Assembly: GCA_028710985.1 (NCBI GenBank)
Contig: JAQTTB010000002.1
Span: 6,888-70,887, forward strand
Origin: Patescibacteria group bacterium
Lineage (GTDB): Bacteria; Patescibacteriota; Patescibacteriia; JAHJFT01
Length of the DNA: 64,000 nt
Direction of reading: 5' to 3'
Position numbers and translations under genes: made by a program. Shown here in pieces: positions 18,888 through 62,239 of the stretch. The notes beneath the pieces are model-generated. The model saw only the letters and a list, made by a program, of their open reading frames with translations. It had not been told where the DNA came from and did no database searches. Within the stretch, counting starts at the first letter, position 1. Each line of letters begins with the position of its first letter.

Positions 18888-21625
18888 AGTTCCGCGGCCT
18901 TTTCAATGCGTAATTGACCTCCTTTTTCCAAATAAACAATATCGCGCCGTCCAATTTTTCCGGTCAATAAATAATTTGCCAGCGCGTCATTCACCCTCTC
19001 GTGAATCACTCTTTTTAATGGACGTGCGCCAAACAGCGGATCGAAACCCGCAGTGGCCAATTCCTCAGCCGCCTCTTCAGTGACCCGAAGATGAATTCCC
19101 TTCTCTTCCATTACGCCCTGAAGCTTTGAAAGCTGCAGCCAGGCAATCTGCAGAACCTCTTCGCGCGTGAGCGGCGCGAAAACAATAACTCCGTCAAAAC
19201 GGTTCAAAAACTCAGGACGGAAATATTGCTTCAGCTTCTCCTGGACCAGCGTGGTCTGGATCTGCGCAACCGGCGTATTTTTTTTAATCTCTTCCTGAAT
19301 AAAATCCGTACCCGCATTAGATGTCATGATGATAATCGCATTTGTAAAATCGACGGTCCGGCCGAGATTATCAGTTAACCGGCCGTCATCCATGACTTGT
19401 AAAAACGCGTTTAGTATATCAGGATGGGCTTTTTCGATTTCGTCCAGGAGTATCAGGGCAAAAGGCTTTTTGCGCACCATCTCGGTCAAAATTCCGCCTT
19501 CCTTATCGCCCGGCGCGCCAATCAGGCGGTAGATGCTGGTTTTTTCCTGATATTCGGACATGTCCAGACGAATCATATTATTCTCGTCGCCGAAATACAC
19601 TTCGGCTACGGTTTTTGAAAGTTCGGTCTTGCCCACACCGGTCGGTCCGAGAAACAAGAAATTGGCAATCGGGCGCTTCTTTTCCCGAAGTTCGGCGCGA
19701 GCGCGGCGCAGAGCCGCGGAAACCGCTTTCACGGCCTCATGCTGACCAATCACGCGCTTATGAATCTCATCTTCGAGTTTCAATAGTTTCTCGCTCTCTT
19801 CTCCGGTTATCGCGGTAACCGGCACTTTTGTTTTTTCAGTAATAATTTTCGCCGCGTCTTCGCCCGTGACTAAGGCTTTTTCTCCCCTGGTCTTCCTGAC
19901 CTCCAACGCCGCTTCTTTAATTATTTCAATTGCTTTATCCGGCAGATATCTTTCATGCATCAGCTTGGCGGTCAGCCGCACCGCTTTATCAATTGCATCG
20001 TAAGTGAAAAATACCTTGTTTTCATATTCAATGGAGCCGGCCTTGGCTTCAAGCACGCGAATTGCCGTATCCTCGTCCAGCTCACCGACGTCAATCTTTT
20101 GCATGCGATTGCCGAGCGTACGGCTTTCAATCGCGCGGGTATAATCACCGGGCCTTGAAGTCGCAATGGAAATAAAATATCCGCGGCCGAGTTCATTGGC
20201 AAAAACCTCAGCCAGGTCGATGCTCTGTTCACTGCCCGAAGTAATACCCACCATTTTATCAATATGCGGAACGACGAGAATTATATTGCCCGAAACACCG
20301 ACCTCATTCAGAACCTTCAAGAGCCTCTCTTCGGCCTCCGAGGCCGTGGCGCCGGAAACAAGCTGCGCCGTGCTTAAACTCACCAGTCTTTTATCCTGCA
20401 AAATCTTGGGCACGTCTTCCTGCGCCATGCGCTGGGCCAGGCCTTCGATGATTGCCTGCTTACCCACGCCGGACTCGCCGATAAGAATCGCACTCTGGCG
20501 GCCGCCCTCAATAATGCGCATCAGCTGATTGATTTCCGACGAACGGTTGACGCACGGACTCAAATATCCGTAAGTCGCCATCATAGTTAAGTCCGTGCTG
20601 AACCGGTCAAGCATTGGCGTGGCGATTGCCGTCATGGCACGGTTCATTGCGCCGCGCGGCTTAAGTCGCGCTGCGGCGCGAAATTCACGCCACTGCTCGG
20701 ACAATATCTCCTGGATCCTGATCCAGGAAACCACATTGTTAAGTTTTACGGTATCCACATCCAGGCCAAAGAGCAGTTCCTGCAGGTTTTGGTTTGCCGC
20801 AACAGCCTGCACGAACAATTCAATCGGTCCGATCAAGCGGTGCCGATGGTTATAGGCGTCAACATATGCCCCGAGCACCGCGGCCCTGAGCGCGTCTGAC
20901 CAGACCAGTCGGCCGCCGGCCGCCGGCGGTAGTTTGATGAGCATACCACCCAGGCTTTCCTGCAATTTCTTCATATCCACGCCAAGCCGTCCAAAAACCA
21001 ATCCAATTTGCGGAGTAGAAAGCAGACTGGCAAACAAATGCGCTGGTTCAACCACGCCGTGCTTGAAATTTTGGGCCAACTCATAAGCCCGCTCCAGGCT
21101 GCGCCAAGCCGAAATATTAATTGAACGCGTCACGTCAACACGCTGTTTGGCTACGGCCGCCTGTTCCCAGGGCGCGGCGGCCAAGGCATCTAGGTTGATT
21201 TCTTCTTCTTCGTAGCCGCGGCGCGGAATTTTAATTAAAGCTTCTCCCTCAAGAGCAAGCCGGTAAAAAACAAACGTTAATATCGCCAAACCGATCCAAA
21301 AAATCAAGATTCTGACGTTAGGATTCAGCCAGGTCGCGACTTCGGCCATGGGCAGCCAGCCAAAATTATAAAAATAAATTCCCGTTTGCACGATCGCCAA
21401 TACAGCCAGAATCAATATTGCAAAATTCACAAAATTATTTGCCGCACGGCGCCAGCGATTGAATATAATCTCAAACGGATCAATGTTCTTCCCCCAATAT
21501 AGAAATATAAGTGGCAGGCTTAACCCAAATCCGATGCCACGGCAGACCGAACACACGATATTGCCGTCGATTCCCGAACCAGCGCATTTTGGGCATTTAC
21601 TAATTTTTTGCTCAAGATTTTCCAT
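18884..21625 (-). CDS. ClpB/ClpC-family AAA+ ATPase with N-terminal zinc ribbon and two TM helices
   Basis: CPKC..CSVC zinc ribbon, two hydrophobic helices, two Clp_N repeats, two Walker A motifs (GESGVGKQA, GPTGVGKTE); 913 aa. Confidence 0.8.
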   Translation of the reverse strand: MENLEQKISKCPKCAGSGIDGNIVCSVCRGIGFGLSLPLIFLYWGKNIDPFEIIFNRWRRAANNFVNFAILILAVLAIVQTGIYFYNFGWLPMAEVATWLNPNVRILIFWIGLAILTFVFYRLALEGEALIKIPRRGYEEEEINLDALAAAPWEQAAVAKQRVDVTRSINISAWRSLERAYELAQNFKHGVVEPAHLFASLLSTPQIGLVFGRLGVDMKKLQESLGGMLIKLPPAAGGRLVWSDALRAAVLGAYVDAYNHRHRLIGPIELFVQAVAANQNLQELLFGLDVDTVKLNNVVSWIRIQEILSEQWREFRAAARLKPRGAMNRAMTAIATPMLDRFSTDLTMMATYGYLSPCVNRSSEINQLMRIIEGGRQSAILIGESGVGKQAIIEGLAQRMAQEDVPKILQDKRLVSLSTAQLVSGATASEAEERLLKVLNEVGVSGNIILVVPHIDKMVGITSGSEQSIDLAEVFANELGRGYFISIATSRPGDYTRAIESRTLGNRMQKIDVGELDEDTAIRVLEAKAGSIEYENKVFFTYDAIDKAVRLTAKLMHERYLPDKAIEIIKEAALEVRKTRGEKALVTGEDAAKIITEKTKVPVTAITGEESEKLLKLEDEIHKRVIGQHEAVKAVSAALRRARAELREKKRPIANFLFLGPTGVGKTELSKTVAEVYFGDENNMIRLDMSEYQEKTSIYRLIGAPGDKEGGILTEMVRKKPFALILLDEIEKAHPDILNAFLQVMDDGRLTDNLGRTVDFTNAIIIMTSNAGTDFIQEEIKKNTPVAQIQTTLVQEKLKQYFRPEFLNRFDGVIVFAPLTREEVLQIAWLQLSKLQGVMEEKGIHLRVTEEAAEELATAGFDPLFGARPLKRVIHERVNDALANYLLTGKIGRRDIVYLEKGGQLRIEKAAEL

Positions 21626-27930: not shown

Positions 27931-28330
27931 CGTCATTCCCGCGAAGGCGGGAATCCAAGCGCAATATACCGGGGGTATCTCAGTCAATATTATCGTACAA
28001 ATCACTCCAGAGAGGATTAAAATCCTCTATCAATCTAATCTTCCAACTGCGGTTCCATTTCTTTAATTGCTTTTCCCGCATAATTGCTTCTTCAATGCTC
28101 TCGTACATTTCGTAATATACTAACTTATTAATATAATGCTGCGCCGTGAAAGCGCTGTCTTCGCCTTGCTTATGCTCAAATACCCTGCGCTTTAAATTAT
28201 TCGTTACGCCAATATACAAAGTCCCGTTTCTATTGCTTGCGAGAATGTACGTATAAAATTGATAATAATCGAGCATCTGTACTATTTATTGTTTTCTGGT
28301 AGCTTATAGTATCTGGATTCCCGCCTTCGC
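27931..28330. mobile_element. 400-bp mini-element: 26-bp perfect hairpin-containing TIRs flanking a GIY-YIG nuclease gene
   Basis: CGTCATTCCCGCGAAGGCGGGAATCC at 27931-27956 and its exact reverse complement at 28305-28330. Each TIR folds as ATTCCCGC-GAAG-GCGGGAAT. Confidence 0.55.
27980..28276 (-). CDS. GIY-YIG nuclease family protein (COG2827-like, 98 aa)
   Basis: GTLYIGVTNNLKRRVFEH GIY-YIG motif. Confidence 0.8.
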   Translation of the reverse strand: MLDYYQFYTYILASNRNGTLYIGVTNNLKRRVFEHKQGEDSAFTAQHYINKLVYYEMYESIEEAIMREKQLKKWNRSWKIRLIEDFNPLWSDLYDNID

Positions 28331-28423
28331 GGGAATGACGGAAGAGTGATTTGCGTTAAAAAGCGATGCATGCCAGAATTTGACTTTATGCAAATGGAGT
28401 AGGAGATAAAAAACGCGATTTGT

Positions 28424-29671
28424 CTATAAAATCCGTCCTCTGATCTCGCGATGATACTTCACCGCAAACCGATGCGCCTCATCGCGGACACGGACTAAAA
28501 TTGCTTTGTATTGCTCGCTGACGCGTTTAAGCTCGGGATCGAGCCGGTCGTAAATCAATTCATCTTTTTTGCGCGTAATGCCCTTGGCAATGCCGACCGC
28601 CGGAATGCGCAGCCTAAACAGACTTAAAATTTCCAGAGCGGCATTCACCTGTCCCCTACCGCCGTCAATCAGAATCAAGTCCGGATGCGGCCAGCGGTTC
28701 CGGAAACGCCGCGCCAGAACTTCTTTAAGCATGCCGGTGTCATTGGTGCCGCGGATTGTTTTAATTTTAAATTTGCGGTACTCGCCTTTCGCCGGTTCGC
28801 CTTGATCAAAAACAACCATGCTTCCGACCGCGTGCTGTCCGCTGATCATTGATATATCGTAACCCTCGACCCTTCCAAAAATATTTATGAACTTCTCGCC
28901 GGCCAGGCCGATCTCCGGAGTCGGCTCATCACGCTTTAATAAAGCGATATCCTGAATATGCTCCAATGCGCGGATTTGATTACGGACCGTTGCTGCTTTC
29001 TCGAATTTTGAATTCTCCGACAATCGCTTCATTTCTTTTTTCAGATTCGCAAGAACCCGCGTCTTCCGGCCCTGAAAAAACAAAATCAGGTTGCGGATAA
29101 TTTTTGCGTAATCCGCGCGGCTGATCTTTCCCGCGCACACTCCCGGACATTTGCCAATCTGAAAATTAAAACACGCCCGCTTCTGATTCGGTTCACAGGT
29201 GGAATACGGGATCATCTTGCGGATAAGATCCAGAGCGGCGCGCAGAGAACGCGCCGAAAGATAGGGTCCGAACACGGCTTTGAATCTATTCCTATTCATG
29301 CGCCTGAGCTCAAGTCCACGAATCAGCATGGGCCGCGGAAAATCATCTTTGGTAATCGCGAGATATAAAAAACTTTTATCATCCTTTTCGCGGATATTGT
29401 ATTTGGGCAAATACTTTTTAATCAGATTGGCCTCAAGGATAAGGGCTTCGAGCACCGACAGCGTGATCTGATAATCAATGCGCCGGATGTCCCGGACAAG
29501 GCGCGCGGTCTTGTCGTCATGGGATTTTAGAAAATACGAAGAAACCCGGCTCTTGAGCGAAGCCGCTTTGCCCACATAAATAATCTCGCCGCCCGCGTCG
29601 CGCATCAGATAAACGCCCGGTTCGGCCGGCAATAGATTATTTTTAATTTTTACGTTTTTCGGAATTGCCAT
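28424..29671 (-). CDS. uvrC: excinuclease ABC subunit C, short form (lacks C-terminal HhH)
   Basis: N-terminal GIY-YIG (GVYLMRDAGGEIIYVGKA), Cys-rich region and UvrC RNaseH-like domain; 415 aa. Confidence 0.8.
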   Translation of the reverse strand: MAIPKNVKIKNNLLPAEPGVYLMRDAGGEIIYVGKAASLKSRVSSYFLKSHDDKTARLVRDIRRIDYQITLSVLEALILEANLIKKYLPKYNIREKDDKSFLYLAITKDDFPRPMLIRGLELRRMNRNRFKAVFGPYLSARSLRAALDLIRKMIPYSTCEPNQKRACFNFQIGKCPGVCAGKISRADYAKIIRNLILFFQGRKTRVLANLKKEMKRLSENSKFEKAATVRNQIRALEHIQDIALLKRDEPTPEIGLAGEKFINIFGRVEGYDISMISGQHAVGSMVVFDQGEPAKGEYRKFKIKTIRGTNDTGMLKEVLARRFRNRWPHPDLILIDGGRGQVNAALEILSLFRLRIPAVGIAKGITRKKDELIYDRLDPELKRVSEQYKAILVRVRDEAHRFAVKYHREIRGRIL

Positions 29672-48398: not shown

Positions 48399-48721
48399 TT
48401 TCCGTCAACTTCTTGTCAGCTTTTGTCAGAATAATTTATCCACAGATGGACCTATTGACCGCGGCCTTTCCGGTCCGCTATTATAAAAGCATAAGAGATA
48501 GGAGTTTGCCTGACGGCGTTCCGATTTATCGGAACTAAGTGTGACGGGGCTACGACTTCTGTCATCAAGCACTACGTGTTTTTTTGCTTGATGATGTGAA
48601 GTGGTAGCCCTTTTTTGTTTTTCAATTAAAAGTTAATTCCCTCTGAGGTTAAGTGCCTCGATAAGAAAGCTTAGTATTTGAATAGAAAGATAAAGGCTAG
48701 TCCCAGCGGGGCCAGCCTTTT

Positions 48722-57164: not shown

Positions 57165-57281
57165 AAGGGACGGCGGGAATCGAACCCGCAACCTTTCCGG
57201 TTCCGGAATCGTGCTCAAGATAGGAGGTCAGTCCTTAGTCGACTCCGGTCGTTAACGCTCTGCCAGTTGAGCTACGTCCCT
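57165..57281 (-). tRNA. tRNA-like gene (117 nt) with canonical acceptor, D and T arms but a roughly 40-45-nt insertion in the anticodon/variable region; possible intron-containing tRNA or tRNA-derived pseudogene
   Basis: 5' AGGGACG-T-A-GCTC-AACTGGCA-GAGC-G ... 65-nt region with a 9-bp internal stem (CCGGAGTCG/CGATTCCGG) ... GCGGG-TTCGATT-CCCGC-CGTCCCT-T. A terminator hairpin lies downstream at about 57096-57125. Confidence 0.4.
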
Positions 57282-60939: not shown

Positions 60940-61530
60940 ATGTCAAACCGTTTTTTTGAAATAAAAGAAAAACTCCTCTCTTCCACTGTCCGGCATTTTC
61001 CGCGTTTTATAACGCCCAACCTGATCACCATAATGCGGATATTTTTTTTGCCGGTAATTATTTATTACATCCTCCATGGCAGGTTATTCGTAGCCATGAT
61101 TTTTTTCATTATAGTTTTTCTCCTTGACGTACTCGACGGTCCGCTCGCGCGAAGTCGAGGCCTGGTCACCAATTTCGGCGCGCTCGCCGATCCGTTTATT
61201 GATAAAATAATCTTCATCACCGTCCTGCTGCTTGTCACCTGGAACTCCCTGCCGCATTCGGTTATCTATACAATACTCGCCCTGGAAATTATGATGATGC
61301 TGGTCGCCGCCGTGCTCGCGCCTGTTGCTAAAAAACTTAACTTTAAATTCAAGGTCGGCGCCAACAAGTGGGGAAAATACAAAATGGTACTACAATTCGC
61401 CGGCATTGTCCTGATCATGGCCGCGCCGGAAAATCGAATTGTCATTGAAATCGCCACCGTATTTTTCTGCCTGGCGATAATCTATTCCGCCCGCAGCCTG
61501 GTCACCCACTGCAAGTCAATACAGCAATAA
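60940..61530 (+). CDS. CDP-alcohol phosphatidyltransferase (PgsA-like)
   Basis: D-G-x2-A-R...G-x3-D-x3-D motif LDVLDGPLARSRGLVTNFGALADPFIDK. Confidence 0.8.
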   Translation: MSNRFFEIKEKLLSSTVRHFPRFITPNLITIMRIFFLPVIIYYILHGRLFVAMIFFIIVFLLDVLDGPLARSRGLVTNFGALADPFIDKIIFITVLLLVTWNSLPHSVIYTILALEIMMMLVAAVLAPVAKKLNFKFKVGANKWGKYKMVLQFAGIVLIMAAPENRIVIEIATVFFCLAIIYSARSLVTHCKSIQQ

Positions 61531-61548
61531 AAAACTTTCAAACAATAA

Positions 61549-61572
61549 AACACGCTCCCGCGTGTTTTTTTT
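61549..61572 (+). terminator. rho-independent terminator of the lipid operon
   Basis: ACACGCTCCCGCGTGT followed by TTTTTTTT. Confidence 0.6.
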
Positions 61573-61575
61573 ATT

Positions 61576-61712
61576 TGTCATCCTGAGCCCCCCGCATAGC
61601 GGGGCGGGCGAAGGATCTCACATTTCTCGCAAACCGCTGTGGCGCCATGAATAGTCATCACGAGACCGTGAGATCCTTCGCCCCGCCTTCGGCGGGACTC
61701 AGGATGACGACA
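61576..61712. repeat. MITE-like palindromic element: two inverted copies of an approx. 45-bp hairpin-containing repeat (GTCATCCTGAG-CCCGC-NNNN-GCGGGG-CGAAGGATCTCAC)
   Basis: Left copy 61577-61620 and right copy (reverse complement) 61668-61708. Each carries a CCCGC-tetraloop-GCGGG hairpin, as in the GIY-YIG element TIRs. Confidence 0.5.
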
Positions 61713-61771
61713 ACGTCTTGCGCGTAAAAAAAGGCCCATGGCTATACGCAAGGCCTGTTTTATAAAAATTA

Positions 61772-62239
61772 TTAATTCAACCGCCAAACGTTTATCGCGA
61801 GAAACGTGGCGAACGCCACCCAGCCGGCGTACGGCAGCATGAGCCATGCCGCAGCGCGCGAGCGCGGCCATTCCATAATCATTATCGCGATGACCGTGGC
61901 CTCGAGAAATATCATCTCCAAAATCGCAAGCCCCATCAAATGCCACGCAAACCACAGCACGCACCAAAACGCGTTCAAGAAACCGTTGATAATAAAAAGT
62001 ACGGCTATCATCCTGAATCCCGCGTCATGTGGAAACTTATTCCACGCGATCAAAAGCGAAATGGTGGAAAGAATGTAAATCACGGTCCACGCCGCGCCAA
62101 TGACCCAGCCCGGCGGAGCGAACGCCGGAAGTTTTAACGTATCGTACCAGTCCATTCCCATCCCGGTAAAATATGATCCCAGCCAGCCGATGGCGAACGT
62201 GACAAGCGGTATAATTATGTAATTTGGTTTAATTTTCAT
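61772..62239 (-). CDS. tspO: TspO/MBR family tryptophan-rich sensory protein
   Basis: 5 TM helices and Trp-rich motifs; trimmed to MKIKPNY (155 aa). Confidence 0.8.
   Translation of the reverse strand: MKIKPNYIIIPLVTFAIGWLGSYFTGMGMDWYDTLKLPAFAPPGWVIGAAWTVIYILSTISLLIAWNKFPHDAGFRMIAVLFIINGFLNAFWCVLWFAWHLMGLAILEMIFLEATVIAIMIMEWPRSRAAAWLMLPYAGWVAFATFLAINVWRLN

Follow-up and report, generated by a model that had tools for sequence, protein, structure and literature searches.

A gene-less hairpin doublet between convergent genes in a Patescibacteria genome, and its probable relation to the repeats of Ssn nucleases

Introduction

A 132-bp palindromic insert that carries no gene separates two convergent genes in the stretch of 64,000 nucleotides from a Patescibacteria group bacterium analyzed here (the window). 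It consists of two inverted hairpin units and is called the doublet below. What kind of sequence is it, and does it derive from the element with a GIY-YIG gene that lies at 27.9 kb in the same window? An initial annotation answered yes to the second question, taking the doublet for a MITE-like, non-autonomous derivative of the same element family, moved in trans by the GIY-YIG protein.

Two bodies of work bear on these questions. Small single-domain GIY-YIG proteins of the Ssn family (cd10448) bind NTS hairpins as single-stranded DNA (ssDNA) only, on one strand only, and cut a few nucleotides upstream of the hairpin (Chenal et al. 2025, PMC11893778). Cleavage is governed by the three bases ahead of the palindrome, no base matters more for binding than the C that follows it, and a change of palindrome with the hairpin kept abolishes activity; there is some cross-cutting between similar NTS variants, and the site of the most distant homologue is cut by its own enzyme alone (PMC11893778). 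The authors of that work raised the IS-like architecture of Ssn loci and a parallel to RAYT/REP systems as a hypothesis only. CGTC-tagged REPs, whose tag is often TGTC and whose stems begin with AT, lie mostly between convergent ORFs and occur mainly as HH dimers, with the tags outside and spacers of 20-100 bp (Di Nocera et al. 2013, PMC3733652).

Results

Anatomy of the doublet

The doublet and its immediate neighborhood contain the following features.

60940-61530, plus strand: CDP-alcohol phosphatidyltransferase gene, upstream of the doublet
61547-61575, plus strand: intrinsic terminator of that gene, called by the terminator scan, with stem AAAACACGC/GCGTGTTTT (hairpin 61547-61568) and T-run
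61576-61621, plus strand: left hairpin unit, from sequence and fold (unit 61577-61621; T at 61576 completes TGTCAT)
61588-61607, plus strand: GC-rich mini-hairpin in the loop of the left unit, CCCCCCGC-ATA-GCGGGG-c-GG, from folding
61622-61667, no strand: spacer of 46 nt between the units, from sequence
61668-61709, minus strand: right hairpin unit, from sequence and fold (unit 61668-61708; G at 61709 completes CGTCAT on the minus strand)
61680-61698, minus strand: mini-hairpin of the right unit, TCCCGCC-GAA-GGCGGGG, from sequence and fold
61727-61757, minus strand: candidate terminator of the TspO gene, AGGCC...GGCCT followed by T6, read from the sequence
ending at 61772, minus strand: TspO gene, convergent, downstream of the doublet

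The inverted pair of repeats of about 45 bp reported by the initial annotation is present at 61577-61621 and 61668-61708, and the region folds with a z-score of about -9. Both arms have the layout GTCATCCTGAG, GC mini-hairpin, GCGAAGGATCTCAC, in inverted copies. The arms had been described as near-identical, which holds for the outer 11 nt (GTCATCCTGAG) and the inner 14 nt (GCGAAGGATCTCAC), identical between them, but not for the central mini-hairpins, which are unlike in sequence (approximately CCCCGC-ATA-GCGGGG on the left versus TCCCGCC-GAA-GGCGGGG on the right) and pair each inside its own arm. In a repeat search, arm complementarity was 80% over 30-nt arms and 100% over 16-nt arms. The spacer, put earlier at about 47 bp, measures 46 nt, and inspection found in it no similarity to Ssn coding sequence and no Ssn-like coding remnant. 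Both GTCATCCTGAG and GCGAAGGATCTCAC have two sites each in the 64-kb window, all of them in the doublet, which is itself present there as one copy.

The edges of the doublet (...TTTTTTTATTT / ACAACGTCTT...) show no direct repeat and hence no target-site duplication, so that it is no classical MITE; a REPIN or an HH REP dimer is the better analogy. For an empty-site comparison, the adjoining phosphatidyltransferase has no close homologue, and the sole other contig found (Logan, L194) is identical to the window. A literature search with the literal sequence matched unrelated primers alone.

The 146-nt region containing the doublet folds as DNA at -48.1 kcal/mol, with a z-score of -8.8 against shuffles, and as RNA with z-scores of -8.7 for the plus strand and -10.1 for the minus strand; none of 200 shuffles equalled the fold. 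Taken alone as ssDNA, the left arm folds at -12.0 kcal/mol and the right arm at -11.1 kcal/mol. Each arm has a stem of 5 bp, ATCCT/AGGAT (in the left arm, 61580-61584 with 61612-61616), next to which stand tandem G.A/A.G mismatches forming a 2x2 internal loop, and then the mini-hairpin; the insert beyond the 2x2 GA internal loop is 20 nt long and structured in the ssDNA fold. Directly 5' of the stem, GTC is unpaired in both arms (TGTC at 61576-61579; CGTC at 61709-61706 on the minus strand). Directly 3' of the palindrome is a C (61617 on the left; the complement, G, at 61672 for the minus-strand unit), followed in both arms by an inner extension, CTCAC. The tags lie at both outer ends of the doublet, facing outward across the 46-nt spacer. 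The register of GTC, AT-start palindrome and C is that of the NTS hairpins at 27.9 kb. From this anatomy and the folding model, each arm is predicted to be a strand-specific ssDNA hairpin with the recognition anatomy of the NTS/SRM sites of Ssn nucleases.

Readings at the RNA level and other mobile classes

The initial annotation placed the insert between the terminator of the lipid operon and tspO, and that is its position: the terminator at 61547-61575 touches the doublet on the left, and the candidate terminator at 61727-61757 adjoins it on the right, ahead of the convergent TspO gene, whose end is at 61772. The terminator scan, limited to loops of at most 8 nt, missed the latter candidate, whose loop has 15 nt. 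A location between convergent genes, together with a very stable predicted RNA hairpin on either strand (-81 and -86 kcal/mol on the two strands), is what one would expect of a host feature acting at the RNA level, as a bidirectional terminator or a 3'-end stabilizer of the two convergent transcripts, and such action has been proposed for REP dimers. Both genes, however, have their own hairpin and T-run ahead of the doublet. A U-tract or T-run after the doublet is absent from either strand, and the terminator scan, which called the hairpin at 61547-61568, did not call the doublet, so the simple bidirectional terminator that the initial annotation had kept in view as a counter-explanation is not what is found here. 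Hairpins of the Ssn type are bound as ssDNA, not RNA (Chenal et al. 2025, PMC11893778), and elsewhere, as described below, such units stand on either side of Ssn genes in unrelated surroundings. Because the two genes have their own terminators, no U-tract is present and the units flank Ssn genes elsewhere, termination or RNA stabilization is very unlikely to be the reason for the doublet.

Strong predicted structure and an inverted-repeat layout would also fit a small structured RNA gene or another mobile class, either a RAYT-mobilized REPIN or the MITE of a DDE transposon. Rfam gave no match to the doublet at the gathering score, with chance-level matches alone at E<=1, and no promoter-like site was found within 61300-62000; both results argue against an sRNA gene. 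As to the mobile classes, the tag is GTC and not the GTAG of RAYT-associated REPs, and the target-site duplication is lacking. We consider these readings scarcely credible.

The Ssn element of the window

The GIY-YIG element that the initial annotation had described at 27.9 kb is real, with its gene between inverted copies of CGTCATTCCCGCGAAGGCGGGAATCC at 27931 and 28340.

27931-28340, minus strand: NTS-ssn-NTS element, an Ssn gene between inverted CGTCATTCCCGCGAAGGCGGGAATCC hairpins, from sequence
27931-27958, plus strand: CGTCATTCCCGCGAAGGCGGGAATCC hairpin, left flank of the P0001 gene
27980-28276, minus strand: GIY-YIG (Ssn-family) gene, P0001, Pfam GIY-YIG E 3e-17
28313-28340, minus strand: CGTCATTCCCGCGAAGGCGGGAATCC hairpin, right flank of the P0001 gene

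The flanking hairpins, tags outward, read CGTC-ATTCCCGC-GAAG-GCGGGAAT-C, and each folds at -8.9 kcal/mol. The right copy (28340) is an exact match to the NTS consensus CGTCATTCCCGCGMAVGCGGGAATCYRG and to the SRM pattern, and the left copy (27931) departs from the NTS consensus at the last base. That one Patescibacteria genome has hairpins so close to the NTS consensus of Neisseria meningitidis, one copy matching it and the other nearly so, points to little divergence of the hairpin type across phyla. In a regular-expression scan, the published SRM pattern, HGTCWYN(0-2)YYVSBRHN(0-5)WNVSBRGN(0-2)RNCYNB, had the unit at 28340 (minus strand) as its sole match in the window; the doublet arms at 61577 and 61709 fail it. 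A second Ssn of the source contig, P0002, is 82% identical to P0001 and belongs, like P0001, to the NTS-associated clade.

Is the doublet a non-autonomous derivative of this element, mobilized in trans by its protein? The two lie on the same contig and share the GTC tag, the AT-start palindrome and the trailing C. In addition, the loop of the right arm, CCCGCC-GAAG-GCGGG, resembles the NTS core CCCGC-GAAG-GCGGG, and the cross-cutting reported between similar NTS variants (Chenal et al. 2025, PMC11893778) speaks for this derivation as well. Against it, the palindromes differ, being ATCCT..AGGAT plus GA mismatches in the doublet versus ATTCCCGC/GCGGGAAT in the NTS pair, and the published experiments in which a palindrome change killed activity, and in which the most distant homologue's site was cut solely by its own enzyme (PMC11893778), tell against recognition of the one by the enzyme of the other. 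The nested CCCGC hairpin is without a GTC tag, AT base pairs or a trailing C, and it sits in a freely varying loop. The likeness between the two structures is limited to the tag, the AT start and the trailing C, and the CCCGC/GCGGG hairpin stressed by the initial annotation is no part of it. The comparison of nuclease clades bears on the same question.

Units of the doublet type at Ssn genes of another clade

The hairpin subtype of the doublet, here called CTGAG, has the form GTC-AT-NN-T-GA-G...C-GA-A-NN-AT-C. On FLOH01000012.1 an Ssn homologue (L213; HMM E 5e-32), 49% identical to P0001, lies between ...TGTCATCCTGAGCGGTAGTCGAAGGATCTCAC and GTGAGATCCTTCGACTCCGCTCAGGATGACA. The same contig, 976 kb long, has six gene-less doublets with the same arms as the Ssn element there, and their spacers start with TAGATG and end with GCTA, like the interior ends of that element. 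Because arms and interior ends are shared, the gene-less doublets on this contig are internal-deletion derivatives of the Ssn element.

Units including the CTCAC extension, tags outward, flank Ssn genes in L213, L229, L233, L236, L237, L239, L241 and L242. Units of the form GTCA-NNNN-GA(G/A)...GA-NNNN-T-C stand on both sides at L229a, L230, L233, L236, L237, L239, L241 and L242, and L231 is without them. We collected the nearest relatives of the L213 Ssn irrespective of their flanks and set them, over a few dozen kilobases per locus, beside a P0001-like set, selected for relatedness to the window's Ssn and comprising 84 genes from 80 loci. CTGAG-type units were found on both flanks of 7 of the 8 L213-like genes versus 0 of the 84 P0001-like genes (Fisher p 9e-10), with three of the eight L213-like loci syntenic, so that they represent about six or seven independent lineages. 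L229a and L242 are two further both-flank cases, recognized by eye. NTS-type hairpins on both sides characterize 64 of the 84 P0001-like genes. Some genomes (L229, L135) carry paralogues of both Ssn kinds, each with its own hairpin type. No L213-like Ssn is present in the 64-kb window; an Ssn gene between inverted copies of the doublet's unit type is a feature of other genomes, and the window's only Ssn gene has NTS-type flanks.

In other genomes, one clade of Ssn genes has CTGAG-type units as its terminal inverted repeats, and the hairpin subtype tracks the nuclease clade. Since the subtype tracks the other Ssn clade, action in trans by the window's enzyme is unsupported. Trans-mobilization by that protein, which the initial annotation had read from the structure, is not implied, given the 7/8 versus 0/84 contrast and the loss of activity upon palindrome change. 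Its phrase "non-autonomous derivative of the same element family" is apt insofar as the doublet is a gene-less counterpart of Ssn elements; the window's own element, among whose 84 relatives the subtype flanks no gene on both sides, is not indicated as the source. We therefore regard descent from, and mobilization by, the element at 27.9 kb as unlikely.

Several of these loci show arrangements of their own. In L228 (1085-1880, also FLOH01000012.1), two identical doublets lie 651 bp apart with at least 40 nt of common left flank, and the pair is apparently part of a larger local duplication, not two independent insertions. In L229 (7700-19800, Gracilibacteria MAG GCA_028685995.1), an F-type ATP synthase operon is broken by two Ssn genes of different clades with their own hairpin types; the region also has gene-less doublets and inserted RNase H, Fic and MazG genes, and its Ssn ORFs are untranslatable with table 11, consistent with an alternative genetic code. 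L135 (390-5390, a Parcubacteria MAG) has three Ssn paralogues in 5 kb, with flanks of the ATCCCGGCG, ATCCCGTAG and ATTCCCGC types, and a gene-less CTGAG-type doublet at 2239-2307. L233, L239 and L241 come from three related genomes that have the same Ssn element at one ABC-F / Ssn / argS locus, an arrangement suggestive of vertical inheritance. Unit number varies at that locus, with an extra forward unit plus spacer downstream in L239 and an extra reverse unit upstream in L241.

Further copies in viral and metagenome contigs

A search for further copies had been proposed by the initial annotation, and it returned many: 113 viral stretches with units and 34 metagenome stretches with doublets. 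In viral contigs, the pattern GTCATCCTGAG-N0-30-GCGAAGGATC retrieved 150 units in the 113 stretches. The base ahead of GTC is T in 132 of the 150. The loop is usually 4 nt, and roughly a quarter of the units hold unrelated mini-hairpins there; because loop contents vary across the family, the CCCGC/GCGGG hairpin of the doublet is a variable insert rather than a family signature. An Ssn gene was found near the unit in none of the 113 viral loci, nor was any recurrent or shared neighboring gene family, and a scan of viral contigs for Ssn-sized cargo between GTCATCCTGAG ends gave 0 matches.

The doublet inner-arm pattern GAAGGATCTCAC-N25-55-GTGAGATCCTTC, scanned against metagenome contigs, retrieved the 34 stretches, most of them complete tags-outward doublets. 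Spacers of doublets on other contigs measure 25-50 nt. Doublet subfamilies keep their spacer but lie in unrelated flanks, a 38-nt spacer in many soil contigs being one example, which is as expected of something that spread. Taken with the contig described above, gene-less doublets elsewhere appear to be internal-deletion derivatives of Ssn elements, present at multiple sites.

The stem of the unit covaries, as counted on units picked independently of the DNA pattern used here: TCCT/AGGA occurs 23 times, TTCT/AGAA 8, TGCT/AGCA 5 and CCCT/AGGG 2, besides others. Of 111 candidates, 46 have fully complementary stems, where shuffles predict 6.8; in 41 of these 46 units a C follows the palindrome.

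The repeat GTCATCCTGAG...GAAGGATC is often mistranslated as small spurious ORFs. In one IMG/VR contig (L053, 8595-8969), five units in the same orientation at a spacing of 87 nt form a tandem array, not a dimer.

Comparison with known repeat systems

Four described systems resemble the doublet in part. Like the NTS/SRM sites of Ssn nucleases (PMC11893778), its units are oriented hairpins with GTC 5' of an AT-start palindrome and C 3' of it, and in that system, too, inverted copies flank Ssn genes with tags outward and many extra copies are gene-less. The doublet differs in that its palindrome comprises 5 bp, tandem G.A mismatches and a variable loop that here contains a GC mini-hairpin, in that its unit type has the conserved CTCAC inner extension, and in that its subtype is tied to the Ssn clade that is 49% identical to the window's enzyme.

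The CGTC-tagged REP HH dimers (PMC3733652) share with the doublet the CGTC/TGTC terminal tags on the outside, the AT-start stem, a spacer within 20-100 bp and the location between convergent ORFs, and their partners may differ (heterodimers). Their stems are 8-9 bp and their loops 4-5 nt, unlike the 5 bp, GA internal loop and long structured loop of the doublet. No associated enzyme was known for them in 2013, and the doublet is one copy in 64 kb.

In the REPIN-RAYT system (Bertels and Rainey 2011, PMC3116915), two inverted hairpin repeats and their spacer likewise make up the spreading unit, the enzyme gene is flanked by the same repeats, and hairpins are recognized as ssDNA. RAYTs, however, are HUH tyrosine transposases that cut and rejoin at hairpins with GTAG tags, whereas Ssn is a hydrolytic GIY-YIG nuclease without known joining activity. 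The doublet has the tag GTC, not GTAG, and in other genomes such units enclose the gene of a GIY-YIG Ssn.

The Neisseria dRS3 repeats and intergenic mosaic elements, finally, are short segments bounded by inverted dRS3/NTS hairpins, dRS3 corresponding to both CGTC-1 and NTS (PMC11893778, PMC3733652). They form large mosaic clusters around surface-protein genes, whereas the Patescibacteria doublet stands alone and is of another hairpin subtype. The repeat class of Ssn-related motifs and CGTC/TGTC-tagged REP HH dimers is thus already known and widespread, and the CTGAG subtype falls outside its published consensus; our literature search found no paper naming that subtype.

Discussion

The reading that we favor, at a probability of roughly three in four, is that two Ssn-related hairpin repeats of the CTGAG subtype, head to head with tags outward and no gene between them, make up the doublet. 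Several results count against it. The arms fail the published SRM pattern and depart from the dimensions of the CGTC families (8-9-bp stem, 4-5-nt loop). The 64 kb hold one copy and no L213-like Ssn, and P0002 is of the other clade. The 113 viral loci have no Ssn gene near the unit. The eight L213-like loci include three that are syntenic, and no close relative of the host was found for an empty-site comparison. Finally, GIY-YIG enzymes are hydrolytic.

A mechanism for such a dimer can be sketched. In single-stranded DNA, as arises in replication, DNA uptake or cruciform extrusion, the 5' end of each strand would hold one forward unit; bound there, a cognate Ssn would cut a few nucleotides upstream, nicking just outside each end of the doublet. 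By analogy with REPINs and RAYT transposases, the doublet may have started as an Ssn element whose gene was lost, or have been copied from one, and copies would be made by some repair- or replication-dependent route. Mobilization by Ssn is a hypothesis, the known activity of these proteins being ssDNA binding and cleavage, not transposition. Because the cognate nuclease clade is absent from the window, the doublet in this genome is probably an orphan that is tolerated in a neutral gap with a terminator on each side, and a single insert in a terminator-flanked gap is probably of little consequence for the genome.

We advance a wider reading tentatively, as possible rather than probable. Ssn nucleases with their hairpins may constitute a GIY-YIG-driven family of elements, mobile or domesticated, that recognizes ssDNA hairpins and parallels RAYT/REPIN, in which nuclease clades and hairpin subtypes (NTS versus CTGAG) co-diversify, gene-less tags-outward doublets are the replicating non-autonomous form, and the doublet of the window is an orphan. 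If this is true, the orphan implies either a past enzyme followed by its loss or horizontal arrival, in a Patescibacteria genome that also holds an NTS-type pair. 

Apart from this wider reading, the analysis assigns to the Ssn nuclease system a bacterial repeat, GTCATCCTGAG...GAAGGATC, that is very common yet uncatalogued. The pairing of subtype with clade supplies concrete pairs of enzyme and site, useful for the ssDNA-cutting tools promised by the discovery of Ssn, and gene-less doublets that are deletion derivatives at many sites add comparative evidence for RAYT/REPIN-like behavior of Ssn elements.

Other features of the window

Matches to GTCAT plus a hairpin elsewhere in the window (18986, 48561, 4778 and others) were set aside after inspection. 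The match at 18986 is intragenic and probably due to chance. The match at 48561 belongs to an intergenic nested hairpin at 48541-48615, GGGCTAC...GTAGCCC with a T-run, which contains TGTCAT and has an 8-bp stem; because the base after its palindrome is G, it looks like a terminator and not like an Ssn-type hairpin.

The NTS-ssn-NTS element lies downstream of uvrC (28424-29671, minus strand), which ends 84 nt from it. The uvrC product, 414 aa long, has GIY-YIG, UVR and RNase H-like domains, and a C-terminal helix-hairpin-helix was not detected in it by Pfam; the gene may have been cut short by the insertion, or this length may be usual in the lineage. At 57165-57281 on the minus strand, Rfam reports a tRNA of 117 nt with 47 bits, above the gathering score, that ARAGORN does not report; it may be an insertion- or intron-bearing tRNA, or an unusual one.
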